Virus record (IMG/VR): IMGVR_UViG_2713896899_000006
Coordinates: 1-24,900 of that record
Reading direction: 5' to 3' (one strand)
DNA from: a virus
Taxonomy: Duplodnaviria > Heunggongvirae > Uroviricota > Caudoviricetes
Length of the DNA: 24,900 bases
The notes below the pieces were generated by a model that did no database searches, was not told where the DNA came from, and saw only the letters and a list, made by a program, of their open reading frames with translations. Below are positions 1,181 to 12,624 of this stretch, in pieces; the stretch's first letter is position 1; every line of letters starts with the position of its first letter. The position numbers and the translations under genes are program-made.

Positions 1181-1198
1181 GCCGCCCGAAAGGGCGGC
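1181..1198. terminator. GC-rich hairpin (gccgccc-gaaa-gggcggc) between convergent genes; probable bidirectional terminator
   Basis: Perfect 7-bp GC stem with GAAA loop lying between the + gene ending at 1076 and the minus gene ending at 1210; on the minus strand it is followed by a T-rich tract (ctcctgatgtttt). Confidence 0.5.
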
Positions 1199-1209
1199 TG
1201 TTCCGCTGT

Positions 1210-1764
1210 TCAATTATCTAAAATTGTGCTAAACCTTTTGATTACCATTAAGAACGTTATAACAGTGATAAAAAAGGATGTATAGGCTAAAAAGCTAACA
1301 ATATATGCAGGTGCGCGAAAATACCATTTCATTAAATCCACTGCATTGTCAGGCAGGAAATATATTATCACTGAAAATATAACCAATACTATTGAAGTTA
1401 ATATTGCATAAGCGACGTTGTGGCATAACTGCTCATATATGGTTTTGTTAGTGTTTAATGATATCAATTTGTCTCGGGATTTGTGTCCTTCAATTATGTC
1501 TGATATCTTAGTAATGGTTTTTTGTTTTTGTTCATAAATCATTATTACTGCACTCATTAATAGTGCTGTTGTAATAGCCCCGAAGTTAACGAAGACGGAA
1601 GCAATTGCCGGTTTCATTATTCCGTATGTCCAGCACAGAACGAAAGAAAGAGATAGCGGAACAATAAAATGTACGATAATGTCGCTCATCAACATTGTTC
1701 CACGCTGATCTGACATTGTTTTGTAGTGTTTTATTATTACACCCAGCACATTTATTTTATTCAT
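1210..1764 (-). CDS. integral membrane protein, 184 aa, about four predicted TM helices; downstream gene of the AT-rich antisense cassette (candidate effector)
   Basis: Four hydrophobic stretches read by eye (IIVHFIVPLSLSFVLCWTYGI; AIASVFVNFGAITTALLMSAVIMIY; VAYAILTSIVLVIFSVIIYFL; YIVSFLAYTSFFITVITFLMVI). Start ATG overlaps upstream stop as ATGA (1761-1764); AGGGG Shine-Dalgarno upstream on the minus strand. Visibly AT-rich codon usage unlike neighbours. Confidence 0.7.
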   Translation of the reverse strand: MNKINVLGVIIKHYKTMSDQRGTMLMSDIIVHFIVPLSLSFVLCWTYGIMKPAIASVFVNFGAITTALLMSAVIMIYEQKQKTITKISDIIEGHKSRDKLISLNTNKTIYEQLCHNVAYAILTSIVLVIFSVIIYFLPDNAVDLMKWYFRAPAYIVSFLAYTSFFITVITFLMVIKRFSTILDN

Positions 1765-2693
1765 ATGATCACCCCTTTGTTTCCGCTATGCAGTTCTAAC
1801 AATATATCATTAGAAAGGTTTTTTATCGTGTCATGAAGTGCTGTTAGATCAGGTATGCCTGTTAATGGGTCGATTTTTAGATCATTATCATCTAACTCTG
1901 CGGAAATTCCTTTTTTTAGTATGGTATCATAATTGAAAACGACAGTCCGACTGCCGAGCTGTAAGCTTACTTTTATTGCATCACATTTATCTTCAATAAT
2001 CTCAATGATGTTTCCTATATTCTTGTTTCTTAAATCCCTGAAACTTCCGAACATGCCATCGTTTGCTTTTATTATTAAGTCTGTCTTGATGTTTGTTTTG
2101 TTTTGACCAAAGGAATCAGCAATGTCTTTTGGTGCTTTATATCCTTGAGCCTTAATTTGTTTTAATTCGGAATTGAGAATATATTGAGGGATTTTCTTAT
2201 GATGTAATGGATTGATTCTTGCTTCGAGTTGAAATTTGTTTTTTAGATATTCAGTGATAGAATCAGAAAGGACACCTCGAGCAGAAATATTATCGCAAGA
2301 ATGGAATGCAATAATTCCTTCTTCAAGGGTGTCTGGTAGGTATATTAAAATATAACGTTCTTTGAGTGTTACATCATAAGCAGTTGTCCTGTAGTGGATT
2401 TTTTTGAGTTTTACATCCTTTATTTCACTACTTTCTCCATATTTCCCAACTTTTATATAACCATATATAATTTTCTTTGTGTTATCAAAGTGAAGTTTAG
2501 CGTGTTGTTCTAGAGATATTTTAGTTTTGGATACGCCAAACTCGATGGGGGTGTTTTTATATAGAGTAAAATAATCAACAAAAAGTTCATATGCCGTTTT
2601 TTTATTACTTAAACCCAATTCATTAAGCTTTTTGCTGGCTCGACTGCCTTTATGGGTCAATACGCGGAATGAATAGAAATTAACGCTGTGCAT
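1761..2693 (-). CDS. soluble protein of unknown function, about 310 aa; upstream gene of the AT-rich antisense cassette (candidate sensor/enzyme)
   Basis: Long minus-strand ORF (track 1761..2711). I place the start at the ATG at 2693 because AAGGA lies 6 nt upstream on the minus strand, whereas the ATG at 2711 has no RBS. Lysine/isoleucine-rich and AT-rich. No catalytic motif recognised. Confidence 0.65.
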   Translation of the reverse strand: MHSVNFYSFRVLTHKGSRASKKLNELGLSNKKTAYELFVDYFTLYKNTPIEFGVSKTKISLEQHAKLHFDNTKKIIYGYIKVGKYGESSEIKDVKLKKIHYRTTAYDVTLKERYILIYLPDTLEEGIIAFHSCDNISARGVLSDSITEYLKNKFQLEARINPLHHKKIPQYILNSELKQIKAQGYKAPKDIADSFGQNKTNIKTDLIIKANDGMFGSFRDLRNKNIGNIIEIIEDKCDAIKVSLQLGSRTVVFNYDTILKKGISAELDDNDLKIDPLTGIPDLTALHDTIKNLSNDILLELHSGNKGVII

Positions 2694-3119
2694 GAAAGTC
2701 CTTTTGAACATATAGGAATATACTAGAACATAAATAGATGCAATGTATAAAGGAAAAGCTACCGCAGGGCGAACTCACCCACCGATAGCTCTTAACTGGT
2801 TGTTTGTAAAAGATAATACATAAATAGGGGGCTGTGTAAAGAGGTAAGCATCGTCAGGGCAGGGGAGATGTGTTAGGCGATATTGGTAAAATTTACGTTG
2901 AGGATAAAAACGGTTTGCGTGAAAAGAAGAGTTAAGTAAAAATCGCTGCGGGTGCTTGAGGCTATCTGTCTCAGGCATGAACACCAAAAGGCAGATAGAG
3001 AAAAGCCCCAGCTAACATTACGCGTCTTGCAGGACGCTTAACATTAATCTGAGGCTCAATCCATGCTGAACACATGTAGGTTAGCCTCTTACGTGCCGAA
3101 AGGCAAGGAGAAGCAGGCT
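2694..3119. promoter_or_regulatory. divergent control region between the antisense cassette and hok; contains the structured hok leader (inverted repeats) and presumably promoters for both units
   Basis: About 425 bp without a convincing ORF; inverted repeats ctatctg...cagatag (about 2963-3000) and gaggct...agcctc (about 3050-3088) just upstream of hok, consistent with the folded leader of hok-family mRNAs. Promoters not individually resolved. Confidence 0.35.
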
Positions 3120-3275
3120 ATGAAGCAGCAAAAGGCGATGTTAGTCGCCCTGATCGTCATCTGTTTAACCGTCATTGTTACGGCACTGGTAACGAGGAAA
3201 GACCTCTGCGAGGTACGAATCCGAACCGGTCAGACGGAGGTCGCTGTCTTCACAGCTTACGAACCTGAGGAGTAA
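3120..3275 (+). CDS. hok: Hok/Gef-family type I toxin (small membrane-depolarising peptide), 51 aa
   Basis: Product MKQQKAMLVALIVICLTVIVTALVTRKDLCEVRIRTGQTEVAVFTAYEPEE matches, from memory, E. coli HokD/RelF and Gef almost residue for residue; AAGGAG RBS upstream; an in-frame upstream ATG at 3063 gives the 70-aa ORF in the track. Confidence 0.85.
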   Translation: MKQQKAMLVALIVICLTVIVTALVTRKDLCEVRIRTGQTEVAVFTAYEPEE

Positions 3276-4649: not shown

Positions 4650-5188
4650 TTTACCCAACAAATACAGGCAAAAGCGGGGAACACCTTCGTCTCACCACGC
4701 TGGAAAGTGTCTGGATTCAGGGAAAACTGCGTATGTGGGGGCGCTGGTCGTATATTGGCGGCGGCAGGTCAGGGAATATGTTCAACCAGTTGCTGGCGTC
4801 AAAAAAATTGACGAAAACAGCAATCAATGAAGCCCTGCGCAGGATGAAAAAAGCAGGAATAGAGAAGCCGGAGCTGGAAGCATTTTTACGTGAGATGATC
4901 AACGGGAAGCAAAAGAGCTGGCTGGCGCATTGTACTGATGCAGAGGCGTTATGTATTGATCGGGTTATAAGTGAGGTGCTGACAGAACATCCGGGATTGA
5001 TTAGCGTCCTTCGACAACGGTATGAGGGGCGGGGGATGAGTAAGCTGAAAATGGCACAACAGTTAAATGAGTATCGCCCTGGCTGGAGCTTGAAAACTTG
5101 CAGAAATCGCATTGACGCATGGTTGAGTGTTGCTGAGCACATTCTGTATATACCAATGAAATTAGCGTTATGCGGAGAAAGCCAATAA
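4646..5188 (+). CDS. Q: phage late-gene antitermination protein Q (Phage_antitermQ-like), 180 aa
   Basis: AAGGAAGG RBS; position immediately upstream of a promoter/terminator region and the lysis cassette; sequence resembles Q proteins of enterobacterial lambdoid prophages (recall, not search). Confidence 0.65.
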   Translation: MIYPTNTGKSGEHLRLTTLESVWIQGKLRMWGRWSYIGGGRSGNMFNQLLASKKLTKTAINEALRRMKKAGIEKPELEAFLREMINGKQKSWLAHCTDAEALCIDRVISEVLTEHPGLISVLRQRYEGRGMSKLKMAQQLNEYRPGWSLKTCRNRIDAWLSVAEHILYIPMKLALCGESQ

Positions 5189-5194
5189 AAAAGT

Positions 5195-5230
5195 TATTGC
5201 ATTTTTGCCAATAAACTGATTCAATTCAGC
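5195..5230 (+). promoter_or_regulatory. candidate late promoter PR' (and qut-like region) downstream of Q
   Basis: TTGCAT (5197-5202), 17-bp spacer, TTCAAT (5220-5225): an imperfect sigma70-like pair in the position where lambdoid PR' lies. Weak assignment. Confidence 0.3.
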
Positions 5231-5285
5231 TACGCTTCGCAAAGCTGTATCGCGAGGCGAACCAAGTGCAATTGAACTTTAATAG

Positions 5286-5312
5286 AACCCGCCACCGAGC
5301 GGGTTTTGTTGT
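5286..5312 (+). terminator. rho-independent terminator (tR'-like) about 60-80 nt downstream of the candidate PR'
   Basis: Hairpin aacccgc-caccga-gcgggtt followed by ttgttgtttc. Confidence 0.55.
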
Positions 5313-5538
5313 TTCTGACGGATAGAAAAATGAAATAGCTAAATAAAAAGAATTCATTGGATGCCATATTTTGGCAACGTGACGACAGCGTTAATCTGGT
5401 CGGGCTCCCATGGCGACGTAGTGAAGGAGAGGAAGCGTAAAGCATCACTGAGTTACGGTTGGCACCCGGTTTAACGCGTAAGTAGCCTGATAAAGAGATA
5501 GTGCACCGCGGCACTAACAGCGGCAACGATTAACTGAC

Positions 5539-5563
5539 CTCGGCATTTGCCGGGGTTTTTTTA
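5539..5563 (+). terminator. second rho-independent terminator in the Q-to-holin intergenic region
   Basis: Hairpin ctcggc-attt-gccggg (one G-U pair) followed by ttttttt. Confidence 0.55.
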
Positions 5564-5686
5564 TTTAAGGCCGCAGACAGGCCCATTTAGTGCAACGCCT
5601 TTCTCCGTTTCCGCTCCCGGAATATTCGGGGATTTTTTATTCCCTCAATTTGCACCCGCGATATGTGCGAGGTGAGAGATGATGAA

Positions 5687-6022
5687 ATGCCTCATAACCC
5701 AAATACCTGGCCGGACTGGCTGGAGTTGTTTCAGAGCTGGTGGCGTGGAGACACCCCGCTGGGCGCAGTGATTATGTCGATCGTTATGGCTGGTTTGCGC
5801 ATCGCCTATTTTGGCGGTGGTGGGGGCTGGAAACGAAAAACGCTTGAGATTTTGCTCTGTGGTGCCCTGACGTTGACCTTTGCATCCGCGCTTGAGTATG
5901 TCGGATGGCCTAAATCACTTTCTGTTGCCATTGGTGGTGGGGTGGGGCTGATTGGTGTTGATGCTATTCGTGGTGCGGCAATGAGGGTCATCGGTAACAA
6001 GTTTGGTGCTCATAAGGAGTAA
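5687..6022 (+). CDS. holin (three predicted TM segments), about 111 aa
   Basis: Immediately upstream of the endolysin; hydrophobic segments LGAVIMSIVMAGLRIAYFGG, LEILLCGALTLTFASALEYVGW, SLSVAIGGGVGLIGVDAI; GAGGTGAG upstream of the ATG at 5687 (alternative in-frame ATG at 5663 lacks an RBS). Confidence 0.6.
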   Translation: MPHNPNTWPDWLELFQSWWRGDTPLGAVIMSIVMAGLRIAYFGGGGGWKRKTLEILLCGALTLTFASALEYVGWPKSLSVAIGGGVGLIGVDAIRGAAMRVIGNKFGAHKE

Positions 6023-6025
6023 TTA

Positions 6026-6502
6026 ATGCAGACACTGAATTCCCAGCGTAAAGCTTTCCTTGATATGGTGGCATGGTCAGAAGGAACGGATAACGGACGG
6101 CAGAAAACCAGAAATCACGGTTATGATGTTATTGTCGGTGGCGAACTGTTCACTGATTACTCCGATCACCCCCGCAAACTTGTCACGCTAAATCCGAAAC
6201 TCAAATCAACAGCCGCCGGACGTTACCAGCTTCTTTCACGCTGGTGGGATGCCTACCGCAAGCAACTTGGCCTGAAAGATTTTTCGCCAGAAAGCCAGGA
6301 CGCTGTAGCGCTGCAGCAGATTAAAGAGCGTGGCGCATTACCGATGATTGACCGCGGCGATATTCGTCAGGCAATCGACCGTTGCAGCAATATCTGGGCT
6401 TCGTTGCCGGGCGCTGGTTACGGTCAGTATGAACATAGAATCGGTGACCTGATTGCCCGATTTAAAGAAGCTGGTGGGGTGGTAAATGAAGCTGAGATAT
6501 AA
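6026..6502 (+). CDS. R: endolysin, lambda R-type lytic transglycosylase, 158 aa
   Basis: Near-identical by recall to lambda R (NSQRKAFLDMVAWSEGTDNGRQKTRNHGYDVIVGGELFTDYSDHPRK...); AAGGAG RBS. Confidence 0.9.
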   Translation: MQTLNSQRKAFLDMVAWSEGTDNGRQKTRNHGYDVIVGGELFTDYSDHPRKLVTLNPKLKSTAAGRYQLLSRWWDAYRKQLGLKDFSPESQDAVALQQIKERGALPMIDRGDIRQAIDRCSNIWASLPGAGYGQYEHRIGDLIARFKEAGGVVNEAEI

Positions 6503-6878
6503 GCTGGTTATTGTTGCCTTCTTTGTTACCGTCATCGGTTCTTTTATCTGGTATGCCGGGCATTACTACAGCAAATATCAACACGAAAAGGAGCGCGCTG
6601 ATGAGGCTGTACGAAATGCTGAATCAGCAACAGCCATTACCCGTAACGTCCTGCAATCACTGCAAATCATCAACACAGTTATAGAGGCTAACCAGCATGC
6701 AAAACAGCAGATCGCACTGGAGTCACAGAGAATTCAGAAAGAGATCAAAGTGGCTGTTGCGGATGATGATTGCGCTGTTCGTATCGTTCCTTCTGGCGCA
6801 GTTAAGCGGTTGCACGAATACGCGAACGGTATACGTGTCGGTGCCGGTGGTTCCGTTACCAGCCAGTCTGACGGCTGA
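6486..6878 (+). CDS. Rz: i-spanin Rz (N-terminal TM anchor plus periplasmic coiled-coil), 130 aa
   Basis: Starts within the 3' end of R; N-terminal TM helix LVIVAFFVTVIGSFIWYAG; position and architecture typical of Rz. Confidence 0.8.
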   Translation: MKLRYKLVIVAFFVTVIGSFIWYAGHYYSKYQHEKERADEAVRNAESATAITRNVLQSLQIINTVIEANQHAKQQIALESQRIQKEIKVAVADDDCAVRIVPSGAVKRLHEYANGIRVGAGGSVTSQSDG

Positions 6879-9230: not shown

Positions 9231-10334
9231 ATGAGAAGACCGGACTGGGGGGCGTTGCAGCAGGAATATATTGCTGAATACACCCGCTCCGGTGTATCTC
9301 CGGTGGCGTGGTGTGAAGCAAAGGGACTGAATTACGCAACAGCCCGTCGTTACATCAAGAAACCTCCGAAAAATGCGCAGACAGAAGTGCGCAAAACTGC
9401 GCAAAAAAGTGCGCGAAAAAAAACTGCGCAGACTGCGCAGACTGCGCAAAAGCAAAACGGAAAATCTCAGAAAAAAAAGCCTGTATCCGATGCACTCCTG
9501 ATTGAGGGGGACACGGAAGAAATTTCGTTCTGCCCCGATGAATTCGGTATTTCTGACCAGCAGGCAAAATTCGCCATGTTGGTTGCTCAGGGGAAAAAGC
9601 CGACAGAGGCATACCGCCTGGCTGGTTACGAGGGGCAAGGTGCGACAGCAAACAGCAATGCCAGTCGTATGCTTAGAAATGCCAGGGTTTTTCGTGCCAT
9701 CAGCTACTTTCGCAATCATTACCAGAAACGCTATACCGCAGACCTGGATTTACTGGTGAGTCAGTTGATGGCCATCGTGCAGGCTGATCCCAATCAGCTT
9801 GCGCAATTTCGCCGTGTTAACTGTCGCTATTGCTGGGGGGAGAATCACCTCTATCAGTGGCGCGATATAGCAGAATTTGACAGGGCTGCCGCGCAGGCAT
9901 CCAAAGATGGTAAACCAGAACCTGAATATGGTGGCCTCGGTTTCGTTGATAGCGCCATACCAAATCCAGACTGTCCGAAATGCGGTGGAGAAGGTACAGG
10001 TCAGCTTTATATGGCTGATACCACTTTGCTTGATGGAAATGCGCGGCAATTGTATGCAGGAGCAAAGCTCGGAAAATTCGGCGTTGAGATCCTGCTGGAG
10101 AATAAAGCTGCCGCCCGGCGTGAATTATTGCGTTTGCTTTCCGCTGGCGGGGCATTATGTGCAGATAAGCGACTACAGGAACTGGAAATTGAACGGCGCA
10201 GAATGGAAAACCAGAAACTGCGCAAAGAGATCGAAACGGTGGAGGGTAATGAACATCCCCAGCCTGTGGCGATCAATATTAATGTAGTTGATGCCAGAGT
10301 GAGGAGTGATGAAGATGATCTCTCCGACGCTTAA
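9231..10334 (+). CDS. terminase small subunit (Terminase_2-like core) with N-terminal HTH, low-complexity K/Q/T/A linker and C-terminal CxxC...CxxC region, 367 aa
   Basis: Segment QQAKFAMLVAQGKKPTEAYRLAGYEGQGATANSNASRMLRNARVFRAI matches the Terminase_2 small-subunit pattern from memory; directly upstream of and overlapping the large terminase. Confidence 0.7.
   Translation: MRRPDWGALQQEYIAEYTRSGVSPVAWCEAKGLNYATARRYIKKPPKNAQTEVRKTAQKSARKKTAQTAQTAQKQNGKSQKKKPVSDALLIEGDTEEISFCPDEFGISDQQAKFAMLVAQGKKPTEAYRLAGYEGQGATANSNASRMLRNARVFRAISYFRNHYQKRYTADLDLLVSQLMAIVQADPNQLAQFRRVNCRYCWGENHLYQWRDIAEFDRAAAQASKDGKPEPEYGGLGFVDSAIPNPDCPKCGGEGTGQLYMADTTLLDGNARQLYAGAKLGKFGVEILLENKAAARRELLRLLSAGGALCADKRLQELEIERRRMENQKLRKEIETVEGNEHPQPVAININVVDARVRSDEDDLSDA
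9374..9448. repeat. cluster of six exact TGCGCA palindromic hexamers plus one TGCGCG variant within 75 bp, inside the terS coding sequence
   Basis: TGCGCA at 9374, 9388, 9398, 9425, 9434, 9443 and TGCGCG at 9410, spaced 9-15 bp; encodes the TAQTAQTAQ low-complexity linker. Confidence 0.8.
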
Positions 10335-12624
10335 TGTGCCTCAGGCGCGATTTCTTTCTATGCCTCATAAATTTAAAGCCTATGTTGCTGGTTTTGGTTG
10401 CCTGAGGGGAAGTACGCCTGTGGTTACAGAGAATGGGATTCTACCCATTCAGGAAATAACTCGACCAATGCGCGTTTTATCTTGGTCGGATGAGAATAAT
10501 CGATTTGAGCTTTCGCTAAGTGGTGGTGCGTACCCAAAAGGTGTGGCGAATCTATACCGAGTAGTGACGCAGCGAGGAGAATTTGTAGCAAGCGGACATC
10601 ACCGCGTTTTTTGCGCTGACGGTAGCTATCGATCTGTGGATAGTCTGGACGAATCGGTGAAGGTATTTGCATCTTCGCAAAACCTTCTTCTGACCAGTTT
10701 GGCCGCCGTCCCGAAATCGTTGCACGCAGGTGATCCACGTTTGAATCAAAAACTCGCAGATTACTTGGGTTGTTATGCAGATGAAGCCCGTCGATATGGT
10801 CAACAACTTCTGATGGCAGCAGATAACGCCCCAGCTTCTTTTCAGCGATCAAACGATGTTCAAACATCATGCCTGTTCTGCGCATATATGGATGGTCAGC
10901 AGGCGCTGGAGCAACGGCATATCCATCCAGATCAACAATTCGACCACCACGAAAGCTGGGGTTCAACTCACCCTTTCTGGCGCCACGGGAGAGCCGGTTG
11001 GTGTTGTGAATTCGGAGAATATTTTGAACGTGCTTTTCTGTGCAACCAACTTCCGCCGCGATCTCTGCCGACGTACGGTGACCATCAGCAAGAGCGAGGA
11101 TTCTGTCCTTCGCACTTTCTCGAGGGGCAGGCTTCTGGCGTTGTTTCAGCGTTAACCCATAACGAGATATGCAACGATAAACATGACTACGGTCACAACC
11201 TGCCAGAGAAGCAACTTCTGAAACGGTACGTTCTGGATGTGCTAAATCACAAATTAAATGGTCAAGAGGCGTCAAAACCAAACGCCTTAATCGAAACCTG
11301 CAACATATTGAGTGTAACACTGTTGCAGGAGGCCGAGCCATATTATGACCTCCAGGTATTGGATAATAACTGCTACGTAACTGCTGATGGGACGATTCAT
11401 CACAATAGCGGTAAAACATGGGTTGGGTGTGGTGGCATATGTAAGGGGATTTGGGAGCATCCGGGTATCAATCAGGGATATTTTGCGCCTACATATCCAC
11501 AAATTCGCGATATTTTTTATCCTACAGTTGAAGAAGTTGCTGCCGACTGGGGGCTAAATGTAAAAATTAACGAGGGAAATAAAGAAGTTCATTTTTATTA
11601 CGGACGTCAGTATCGGGGAACCACTATCTGCAGATCGATGGAGAAGCCACAAACGATCGTCGGTTTCAAAATTGGTAATGCGCTGGTGGATGAACTGGAC
11701 ATTTTGCCGAAGGAAAAAGCCAGAACAGCGTGGCGCAAGATAATTGCGCGTATGCGTTATAAGGTTGATGGACTTCGTAACGGTATTGACGTTACAACCA
11801 CGCCGGAAGGATTCAAATTTGTCTACGAACAGTTTGTTAAAGCCGTACGTGAAAAAACAGAGCTGGCCTCACTGTATGGCCTGGTACAGGCATCTACTTT
11901 CGATAATGAAAAGAATTTGCCAGCAGATTACATTCCCTCGCTCCTTGAGTCATATCCTCCAGAGCTGATTAAAGCCTATCTTCGGGGACAGTTTACTAAC
12001 CTGACAAGTGGTACTGTTTACCATCAGTTTGACCGAAAACTGAATAATTGCGAAGAAGAGGAACAGCCAGGTGAGCCGATATATATCGGGATGGATTTTA
12101 ACGTCGGAAAAATGGCTGGAGTCGTTCATGTGTTACGTTTTGGGCTTCCATGCGCAGTAACTGAAATCATTAACGCTTACGATACACCAGATATGATCCG
12201 TATTATTAAAGAGCGCTTCTGGTTATATGACGGGAATGATTATCGGAAAGTAAGGGAAATTTATATTTATCCTGATGCATCCGGGGATTCCAGAAAATCA
12301 AATAACGCAAGTGCGACGGATATTGCTCAGCTTAAACAGGCTGGTTTTAACGTTGTTGTAAACAGTTCGAACCCGCCAGTAAAAGATCGCGTTAACTCAA
12401 TGAATGCAATGTTCTGCAATGCCAATGGTGAGCGTCGCTATAAAGTTAATGTGAAGCGTTGTCCGGTATATGCCGAATCTCTGGAGCAACAGGTCTGGGA
12501 TGATAAGGGTGAGCCTGATAAAAAATCTGGTAACGATCACCCGAATGATGCCGGAGGTTATTTTATTGTTAAGCAATTCCCTATTGTCAAACCGACCGGA
12601 AGAGTTACATCACTTCGGATTTAA
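10306..12624 (+). CDS. terminase large subunit precursor (772 aa) containing a 336-aa intein inserted in the Walker A P-loop
   Basis: Exteins join as ...AYVAGFG|SGKTWVGCGG... (Walker A GFGSGKT) with Walker B-like ALVDELD downstream; the rest of the protein has the layout expected of a terminase ATPase/nuclease. Confidence 0.85.
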   Translation: MMKMISPTLNVPQARFLSMPHKFKAYVAGFGCLRGSTPVVTENGILPIQEITRPMRVLSWSDENNRFELSLSGGAYPKGVANLYRVVTQRGEFVASGHHRVFCADGSYRSVDSLDESVKVFASSQNLLLTSLAAVPKSLHAGDPRLNQKLADYLGCYADEARRYGQQLLMAADNAPASFQRSNDVQTSCLFCAYMDGQQALEQRHIHPDQQFDHHESWGSTHPFWRHGRAGWCCEFGEYFERAFLCNQLPPRSLPTYGDHQQERGFCPSHFLEGQASGVVSALTHNEICNDKHDYGHNLPEKQLLKRYVLDVLNHKLNGQEASKPNALIETCNILSVTLLQEAEPYYDLQVLDNNCYVTADGTIHHNSGKTWVGCGGICKGIWEHPGINQGYFAPTYPQIRDIFYPTVEEVAADWGLNVKINEGNKEVHFYYGRQYRGTTICRSMEKPQTIVGFKIGNALVDELDILPKEKARTAWRKIIARMRYKVDGLRNGIDVTTTPEGFKFVYEQFVKAVREKTELASLYGLVQASTFDNEKNLPADYIPSLLESYPPELIKAYLRGQFTNLTSGTVYHQFDRKLNNCEEEEQPGEPIYIGMDFNVGKMAGVVHVLRFGLPCAVTEIINAYDTPDMIRIIKERFWLYDGNDYRKVREIYIYPDASGDSRKSNNASATDIAQLKQAGFNVVVNSSNPPVKDRVNSMNAMFCNANGERRYKVNVKRCPVYAESLEQQVWDDKGEPDKKSGNDHPNDAGGYFIVKQFPIVKPTGRVTSLRI
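10399..11406 (+). other. intein (protein-splicing element) within terL, 336 aa
   Basis: Starts with Cys in block-A-like CLRGSTPVVTENG; block-B-like TxxH (ASGHHRVF) about 65 residues in; ends with block F/G-like YYDLQVLDNNCYVTADGTIHHN followed by +1 Ser; insertion exactly splits the P-loop. Confidence 0.8.
10424..11341 (-). CDS. HNH (HNH_3-like) homing endonuclease with two HTH-like motifs, 305 aa, encoded antisense within the terL intein
   Basis: Minus-strand ORF (track 10424..11419) with HRLIAEKKLGRYLLPSEVVDHIDGLHLHNNPSNLRVFDSNVDHL, a strong match to the HNH_3 signature; I verified the reverse-complement translation of 10730-10810 by hand. GGAGG lies 7 nt upstream of the ATG at 11341 on the minus strand. 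Confidence 0.7.
   Translation of the reverse strand: MARPPATVLHSICCRFRLRRLVLTPLDHLICDLAHPERTVSEVASLAGCDRSHVYRCISRYGLTLKQRQKPAPRESAKDRILALADGHRTSAEIAAEVGCTEKHVQNILRIHNTNRLSRGARKGELNPSFRGGRIVDLDGYAVAPAPADHPYMRRTGMMFEHRLIAEKKLGRYLLPSEVVDHIDGLHLHNNPSNLRVFDSNVDHLRATISGRRPNWSEEGFAKMQIPSPIRPDYPQIDSYRQRKKRGDVRLLQILLAASLLGIDSPHLLGTHHHLAKAQIDYSHPTKIKRALVELFPEWVESHSL

Follow-up and report, generated by a model that had tools for sequence, protein, structure and literature searches.

The closest described systems to the minus-strand gene pair analysed here, whose genes are designated A and B and lie in the first 24,900 nucleotides of the IMG/VR virus record IMGVR_UViG_2713896899_000006 (Caudoviricetes; this whole stretch is referred to as the window), are Sucellos from Vibrio cholerae, RexABpp from Pseudomonas putida and RexAB from phage lambda. 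Sucellos consists of the genes sclA and sclB, which form the cassette VCA0367-0368 in the chromosomal integron of V. cholerae N16961 (bioRxiv 10.1101/2024.07.02.601686). The system has its own promoter, requires both genes and shows a RexAB-like predicted structure without a Pfam match (10.1101/2024.07.02.601686). SclB is a predicted transmembrane (TM) pore, and the cells lyse or die on infection, that is, by abortive infection (10.1101/2024.07.02.601686). Moreover, homologues, which the authors defined by blastp (E<1e-5, coverage >50%) and co-localisation, have been reported from other Vibrio integrons, 'preferentially in prophages' and 'often in Salmonella' (10.1101/2024.07.02.601686). RexABpp is encoded by the genes PP_5643 and PP_5644 of the P. 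putida prophage P1; the system depends on both genes, and its effector is the membrane protein (PMC12894663). Lambda RexA is described as a two-domain relative of RdgC (PMC11077077). Our analysis indicates that the gene pair in the window is a real module, which most likely belongs to an already described, RexAB-like kind of system and does not represent a new type. We consider it probable that A and B constitute a RexAB-type, and most probably Sucellos-family, two-component abortive-infection system, which is carried as an autonomously expressed moron by a Rac-like prophage of Escherichia coli.

The minus strand of the window contains an open reading frame (ORF) for B from 1764 to 1210 (184 amino acids) and, for A, a longest ORF that spans 1761..2711 (316 amino acids). 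The stop codon of A (TGA, 1763-1761) and the start codon of B (ATG, 1764-1762) share an ATGA sequence at 1761..1764 on the minus strand, and this overlap indicates that the two genes are translationally coupled. Both genes are preceded by a Shine-Dalgarno sequence on the same strand, AAGGA (2699..2703) being located 5 nt before an ATG at 2693 and AAAGGGG (1772..1778) 7 nt before the ATG of B, within the 3' end of A. An earlier note on this DNA had proposed two minus-strand genes with an ATGA overlap and one Shine-Dalgarno sequence each, all of which can be read directly from the sequence. The same note had delimited the unit as 1210-2711; the ORFs are indeed present, but the start of A has to be moved. 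Judged from the sequence, A starts at 2693 and not at 2711, which yields a protein of 310 amino acids beginning with MHSV (minus strand, 1761..2693), because AAGGA serves the ATG at this position, because the Prokaryotic Genome Annotation Pipeline (PGAP) annotates 310 amino acids in three genomes, because the relatives all begin with MH and because an extra T in the strains E24377A and EC11 throws the upstream ATG out of frame.

The upstream region of the cassette also contains a candidate sigma-70 promoter at 2813..2840 on the minus strand (-35 TTTACA, 16-nt spacer, -10 TATTAT), which was detected by a consensus scan with 10 of 12 matches. In the EC11 variant, which is 75% identical overall, both hexamers are kept and the spacer varies. 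Since the number of promoters found by the scan does not exceed chance, the element is regarded as a candidate only. It was also observed that the EC11 variant retains about 90% conservation over the region 2694-2901 but only about 75% identity over the coding DNA, which points either to a regulatory region under constraint or to a recombination boundary within the cassette. Autonomous expression appears plausible from the sequence, because the unit is AT-rich, runs opposite to the early-right operon and possesses its own conserved upstream region.

Gene A encodes a soluble, basic protein (35.2 kDa, pI 9.1), which may act as the cytoplasmic sensor or activator and would be the analogue of SclA and RexA. 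The AlphaFold model of A has a mean predicted local distance difference test (pLDDT) score of 76 and is confident in the N-terminal domain and the C-terminal helix. The best match to the predicted fold among the solved structures in the Protein Data Bank (PDB) is the crystal structure of RexA. From the N to the C terminus, the secondary structure elements form a beta-sheet domain, a hinge with the motif NPL, a beta/alpha domain in the middle and a final helix. This order fits the layout of RexA, and the model appears to have the RexA-type fold, in which a dimerisation domain is inserted into a split, RdgC-related globular beta-sheet domain. A Foldseek search of A against viral models retrieved uncharacterised phage proteins of 277-322 amino acids first, followed by RdgC-like 'recombination-associated' proteins. 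RdgC is likewise about 300 amino acids long and, according to the model, similar to A at the level of the fold; in contrast to A, it is encoded by a chromosomal housekeeping gene that is not paired with a gene for a membrane protein, and the RdgC family PF04381 matched neither A nor its relatives in Pfam. Enzyme activities of the HEPN, nucleotidyltransferase or Walker type were also considered for A and dropped, as no domain match supports them.

At the sequence level, a profile of the A family aligns with a profile of 30 RexA-family sequences over 138 columns with an E-value of 0.0045 and a score of 27.8. This score lies above those of all 40 block-shuffled null profiles (mean 17.9, standard deviation 3.4, maximum 24.4). 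At low stringency, the two profiles are collinear over 254 columns, and the motifs AE..YF-DE.LGFPSF, GIKT-GPTT, NPL-EPLM and IK.k-IKPK occur in the same order in both. The signal is suggestive of a remote homology between A and RexA and does not prove it. Comparisons of the A and B families with the single lambda RexA and RexB sequences by hhalign gave nothing, and the same holds true for a narrow A1 profile against the RexA family. Likewise, a sequence search of the PDB with a profile of 136 A sequences returned only noise.

Gene B encodes a protein of 184 amino acids with four TM helices (minus strand, 1210..1764), which may be the pore or ion-channel effector of the pair and thereby the analogue of SclB and RexB. 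The model of B (pLDDT 86) consists of four long helices; the predicted TM helices comprise approximately the residues 26-47, 53-77, 117-137 and 151-175, and an amphipathic segment is predicted at the N terminus. The N-terminal, central-loop and C-terminal segments are basic according to the hydropathy and loop charges, the basic loop between TM2 and TM3 being cytoplasmic and about 40 amino acids long, and therefore both termini are predicted to face the cytoplasm. The model and the hydropathy profile bear out the previous description of B as a membrane protein with four TM segments. Members of the B family share the motifs MxKIN, VNFGAIxTALL, YDQ and MIxKR. A role of B as a holin or in lysis was considered and dropped, because the prophage possesses a separate lysis cassette and B invariably occurs together with A.

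The family to which the cassette belongs is large. By an exhaustive profile search, 581 relatives of A were found at E<=1e-3, each of them representing a cluster at 50% identity, and nearly all of the 150 relatives that were listed have a length of about 300-320 amino acids. A word-seeded search reached only Enterobacterales. The closest clusters at 90% identity are P0001 for A (361 sequences) and P0034 for B (398 sequences), the source names of which are Salmonella enterica. PHROGs contains both A and B, each of them only as 'unknown function', and a cluster look-up of 20 distant representatives of the A family returned uninformative names. Scans with Pfam, NCBIfam and PADLOC gave no match for A and B, and neither RexA, RdgC nor a consistent Pfam or PADLOC domain was found in 136 relatives of A.

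The pairing of A with B is strict. In all 32 loci that were examined beyond the Enterobacterales, A is located directly upstream of a B homologue. This applies to six out of six IMG/VR loci, the ATGA overlap also being present in viral loci, and to each of the 25 species-representative genomes that were recovered via the B motifs, among them Vibrio, Pseudomonas, Halomonas, Alcanivorax, Acinetobacter, Paludibacterium, Alcaligenaceae and a metagenome-assembled genome of the Phycisphaerae. The same arrangement was found in the Pf-like phage PfAC16 and, within the Enterobacterales, in Enterobacter prophages and on a Yersinia plasmid. The overlap of the two genes amounts to 4 nt in 13 of the 23 genome loci for which it was measured, and the distance ranges from -12 to +17 nt in the others.

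The carriers of the pair are lambdoid, P2-like and Pf filamentous prophages, plasmids and Vibrio integron cassettes. In Vibrio cincinnatiensis and Vibrio sp. WZ-1, attC repeats of the VCR type enclose the pair as a single cassette and A is preceded by a conserved TATAAT, and the 90% cluster of this cassette is also present in V. vulnificus, V. parahaemolyticus, V. metoecus and V. navarrensis. A and B of the window are about 21% and 27% identical, respectively, to their counterparts in the Vibrio integron version used for comparison. Moreover, homologues of A were detected by tblastn on small Acinetobacter and Serratia plasmids; no Vibrio sequence was found in this plasmid search for the A family. 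The neighbouring genes mostly belong to mobile elements or defence systems and encode, for instance, integrases, relaxases, P2 tail proteins, a Pycsar-type TIR protein, Abi_2, methylases and a restriction endonuclease. A ParA/ParG plasmid contig of Yersinia enterocolitica carries a divergent A-B pair a few kb away from genes for a ThsB-like TIR protein, a SLATT-domain protein and the ParDE toxin-antitoxin pair (1257-2571, 5084-6537), and from its gene content this region looks like a small defence island. In the Enterobacter prophages (38% identity for A and 42% for B), the pair, which occupies the equivalent slot after the DUF1627 gene, runs with the early-right operon, and the QueH gene that comes next points the other way. 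The cassette can therefore be present in either direction with respect to the phage backbone.

The description of Sucellos coincides with that of the A-B family in five independent features, namely two genes in one integron cassette, an own promoter, a Rex-like fold without a Pfam match, and occurrence in Vibrio integrons and in Salmonella prophages. Indeed, A and B are a pair of a soluble and a TM protein that is Rex-like by predicted structure and is missed by the Rex models of Pfam, and the pair occurs as an attC-flanked cassette in Vibrio. Outside integrons, relatives are found in prophages, and the closest clusters carry the name of S. enterica. The copy in the window differs from Sucellos in its location, since it is not part of an integron but of a Rac-like prophage of E. 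coli, where the replication/nin region and hok/sok flank it. It is likely that the cassette belongs to Sucellos, an identification that we base on the published description. The earlier note had called the pair uncharacterised and had placed it in no known family; with 581 relatives of A and a match to the description of Sucellos feature by feature, this view has to be given up. A 20-mer from the vicinity of VCA0367, taken from a paper on chromatin immunoprecipitation of AphA, had no match in the viral contigs or in the related loci that were examined.

The pair also resembles RexABpp, which likewise combines a protein of about 37 kDa with a 4-TM protein of at least 181 amino acids and whose genes are prophage morons. 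Among the differences, PP_5643 reaches RexA by HHpred (98%), a level that the A family does not attain, and PP_5644, as deduced from primers, lacks the MxKIN start. The gene start deduced from the primers (native start codon GTG) gave no exact DNA match in collections of genomes, metagenomes and viruses. Within the same fold class, RexABpp probably forms a lineage of its own.

Lambda RexAB shares with the cassette that it is prophage-encoded and that a gene for a soluble protein is directly followed downstream by a gene for a small membrane protein with four TM segments. The logic that we propose for the cassette, in which a sensor would act on a membrane channel and thereby cause abortive infection, also corresponds to that of RexAB. 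The proteins differ in size, A having 310 amino acids and RexA 279, and B, with its cytoplasmic loop of about 40 amino acids, having 184 and RexB 144. Furthermore, A and B overlap by 4 nt, whereas rexA and rexB of lambda are separated. In the Pf-like filamentous phage PfAC16 of P. aeruginosa (OR863247.1), the pair is located beside a repressor gene as in lambda. In PfAC16, ORF1 and ORF2 (412-1883) constitute an A-B pair of 311 and 179 amino acids with a 4-nt overlap, which adjoins the repressor and excisionase genes in an arrangement that is reminiscent of cI-rexA-rexB.

Several observations weigh against the assignment of the cassette to RexAB and Sucellos. First, the middle domain of the A model is of low confidence (pLDDT 46-70), and RexA does not appear in the list of viral models that Foldseek returned for A. 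Second, hhalign assigns a probability of only 7.8% to the relationship of A with the RexA family and of 0.5% to that of the B family with RexB. Third, the RexA and RexB models of Pfam (PF15969, PF15968) and PADLOC miss A, B and the 136 relatives of A; the same models match the lambda proteins at 9e-110 and 8.6e-61. Fourth, Foldseek found no viral model that matched B significantly, and RexB was not among the matches listed. Fifth, the cassette is not located beside a cI-type repressor gene, racR being about 4.5 kb away in the strain MEI003. Finally, the identification with Sucellos is circumstantial; V. cholerae is absent from the hits of the genome scan with the B motifs, and the terminal peptides of PP_5643 and PP_5644, as deduced from primers, match no member of the A and B families that was seen.

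These negative results could also be explained by a new, independent two-gene defence family that is neither homologous to RexAB nor identical to Sucellos. In this case, the likeness to RexA would have arisen convergently, through a common alpha/beta fold, and the pair would sense and kill in a different way. The lack of a link to RexA, RexB or the PADLOC models at the level of hidden Markov models, the low hhalign probability, the absence of V. cholerae from the genome scan and the fact that B has only one uncharacterised phage protein as a relative in BFVD would all be in line with such a family. Moreover, the motifs MH...Y..R (at the N terminus), GxxxxGxYG, NPL and DIAD are near-invariant in A, and no counterpart has been described for RexA. 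We nevertheless consider this explanation unlikely, since RexA is the top match of A in the PDB, RdgC-like proteins recur by two methods, the weak alignment of A with RexA is collinear and exceeds every shuffled null, and the descriptive features listed above coincide with Sucellos. It is similarly doubtful that the pair represents an undescribed and very widespread abortive-infection family of at least 581 clusters at 50% identity with its own sensing chemistry.

We therefore return to the RexAB-type reading, for which the genomic setting of the cassette is of importance. The window represents a Rac-like lambdoid prophage of E. coli, which is 99.8% identical to that of the strain MEI003 over the 1.8 kb that were queried. 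In MEI003, racR is followed by ydaS/T/U/V, the genes for DUF1627 and DUF977 together with small ORFs, two opposite-strand genes for 'hypothetical proteins', hok and the late genes. The boundaries of the insert (about 1198-2901) were set by comparison with other E. coli genomes. The left flank (1133-1197) is common to about 2250 E. coli genome records and 13 phage records, all of which lack the cassette, and the right flank, which starts at 2902 and corresponds to the hok/sok locus, is common to about 5300 E. coli records. In sister prophages, the slot is filled by unrelated cargo such as QueH, HNH and DUF551 genes and small ORFs. From the shared flanks without the cassette and from the varied cargo, it follows that the unit is a 1.7-kb insert, which comprises the upstream region with the candidate promoter, A and B (1198..2901, minus strand) and interrupts a conserved prophage backbone.

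The composition of the insert is foreign. Its GC content is 0.342 as compared to 0.470 in the remaining window, and the 405 other windows of 1704 bp have a standard deviation of 0.018 and a minimum of 0.414. At third codon positions, the GC content amounts to 0.29 in A and 0.35 in B. The computed profile thus confirms what the earlier note had stated about an AT-rich unit, and the compositional anomaly together with the variable slot also supports its proposal that the genes were acquired separately. The moron-like position between nin-like genes and hok, which it had recognised as well, proved to be real according to the gene context and the sister prophages, as the insert separates the DUF977 gene and small nin-like ORFs from hok/sok.

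The whole cassette is present in 36 out of 5426 complete E. coli genomes, and a variant with 75% identity occupies the same place in three more. Many of the 36 genomes belong to enterotoxigenic E. coli (ETEC), including E24377A, TW11681 and O169:H41 strains; given this frequency, the prophage variant may be associated with particular lineages. The limited distribution also bears on a role of the pair in prophage housekeeping or regulation, in which A would be an RdgC/RexA-like DNA-binding protein of recombination or of the lysogeny-lysis switch and B a membrane anchor or modulator. Such a role would be in agreement with the RexA/RdgC-like fold and the basic pI of A, with the repressor and excisionase genes next to the PfAC16 pair and with the finding that lambda RexA biases the switch without RexB (PMC11077077). 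It is hard to reconcile with the small number of genomes that carry the cassette, with a variable slot that contains unrelated cargo in sister prophages, with the membrane protein that always accompanies A, and with the presence of the pair in integron cassettes and on the Yersinia plasmid, and of A homologues on small plasmids of Acinetobacter and Serratia, all of which lack a phage switch to be regulated. We thus regard a purely regulatory function as very improbable.

A complete type I toxin-antitoxin locus, hok/sok (2950-3275), abuts the cassette. It consists of sok (2950-3125; Rfam RF01794, 117 bits) and hok (3063-3275), a 70-amino-acid ORF with a Hok/Gef domain. This neighbourhood would be compatible with a function of the A-B pair itself as an addiction or toxin-antitoxin-like module, in which B would be a toxin that is kept in check by A, or in superinfection exclusion, in which B would block the entry of DNA. 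Stabilising cassettes are common on plasmids and in integron arrays, where the pair also occurs, and two-component toxin systems typically show a tight coupling of translation. For a reversal of the roles among Rex-like pairs, the proteins gp30 and gp31 of the mycobacteriophage Butters provide a precedent. In contrast, the gene order, with the large soluble protein followed by the membrane protein, and the protein sizes fit sensor-effector pairs of the Rex type, no toxin-antitoxin or superinfection exclusion (Sie) family was matched in Pfam, NCBIfam or PADLOC, and the published relatives are infection-triggered abortive systems that need both genes. An addiction or exclusion module is therefore a very improbable explanation.

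Assuming a RexAB-type abortive-infection system, the following mechanism can be envisaged. A would be a basic, cytoplasmic RexA/RdgC-like protein of two domains, which probably forms a DNA-binding dimer and may sense a feature of the infecting phage, for instance a phage protein or a replication or recombination intermediate. B, whose synthesis is coupled to that of A, would be a four-helix protein of the inner membrane and probably an oligomeric pore or ion channel. Upon infection, activated A would trigger or open B, the membrane would be depolarised or permeabilised, and the infected cell would arrest or die, so that the superinfecting phage could not complete its cycle. Our data themselves show the anatomy of the genes, their foreign composition, the predicted folds, the size of the family, the strict pairing in distant hosts and the carriage on mobile elements and integron cassettes. 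We infer the binding of DNA, the oligomerisation, the activation of B by A, the damage of the membrane and the anti-phage phenotype from lambda RexAB, RexABpp and Sucellos. The earlier reading of the unit as a defence module is thus retained in so far as it postulated a separately acquired pair of a sensor and a membrane effector. Its comparison with RexA and RexB has gained support from the top match of A among solved structures, the four helices of B and the conservation of the pair on mobile elements. The statement that the family could not be placed does not stand, and the analogies with Kiwa, CBASS and Pycsar are unsupported because PADLOC v2.0.0 yielded no family for either protein and no consistent result for the 136 relatives.

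Two further features of the window deserve to be mentioned. A GC-rich hairpin (GCCGCCC-TTTC-GGGCGGC; 7-bp stem with a tetraloop) is located at 1181..1198, with a minimum free energy of -21.9 kcal/mol and a z-score of -1.8. Since the T-run is set apart from the stem, the hairpin can only be a weak intrinsic terminator, and it may serve as a weak or bidirectional terminator. It had been noticed before as a hairpin that follows the unit, and it is indeed present there; it belongs to the backbone, in which it is conserved without the cassette, and not to the cassette itself. The second feature is an ORF of 331 amino acids on the minus strand (10424-11419; helix-turn-helix and HNH_3 domains). As this ORF is a single gene and the other substantial one on this strand, the former description of the cassette as the only multi-gene unit on the minus strand is correct. 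The HNH ORF lies wholly antisense within the first 367 codons of a plus-strand ORF of 772 amino acids (10306-12624), whose Terminase_6N/6C domains start only at residue 368. In the near-identical prophage of MEI003, PGAP calls the HNH gene and labels the large terminase as 'missing N-terminus'. Judged from this arrangement, the ORF looks like an insertion of a homing HNH gene at the 5' end of terL.

The cassette adds a probable abortive-infection system to the Rac-like prophages of E. coli, whose carriers include many ETEC strains, and it draws attention to a site of variable cargo in Rac/Qin-type prophages, namely the slot upstream of hok/sok. It has been missed by PADLOC (2023), Pfam and NCBIfam and is annotated everywhere as 'hypothetical protein'. 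The size and the carriage of the family indicate that pairs of the RexAB-like or Sucellos type are much more widespread and mobile than one would expect from the few characterised examples, with hosts that span the Gamma- and Betaproteobacteria and beyond. How a RexA sensor acts on its membrane effector has been an outstanding question for lambda Rex for about 70 years. The cassette provides an example that is native to E. coli and genetically tractable for studying how a protein with a RexA fold activates a membrane effector.

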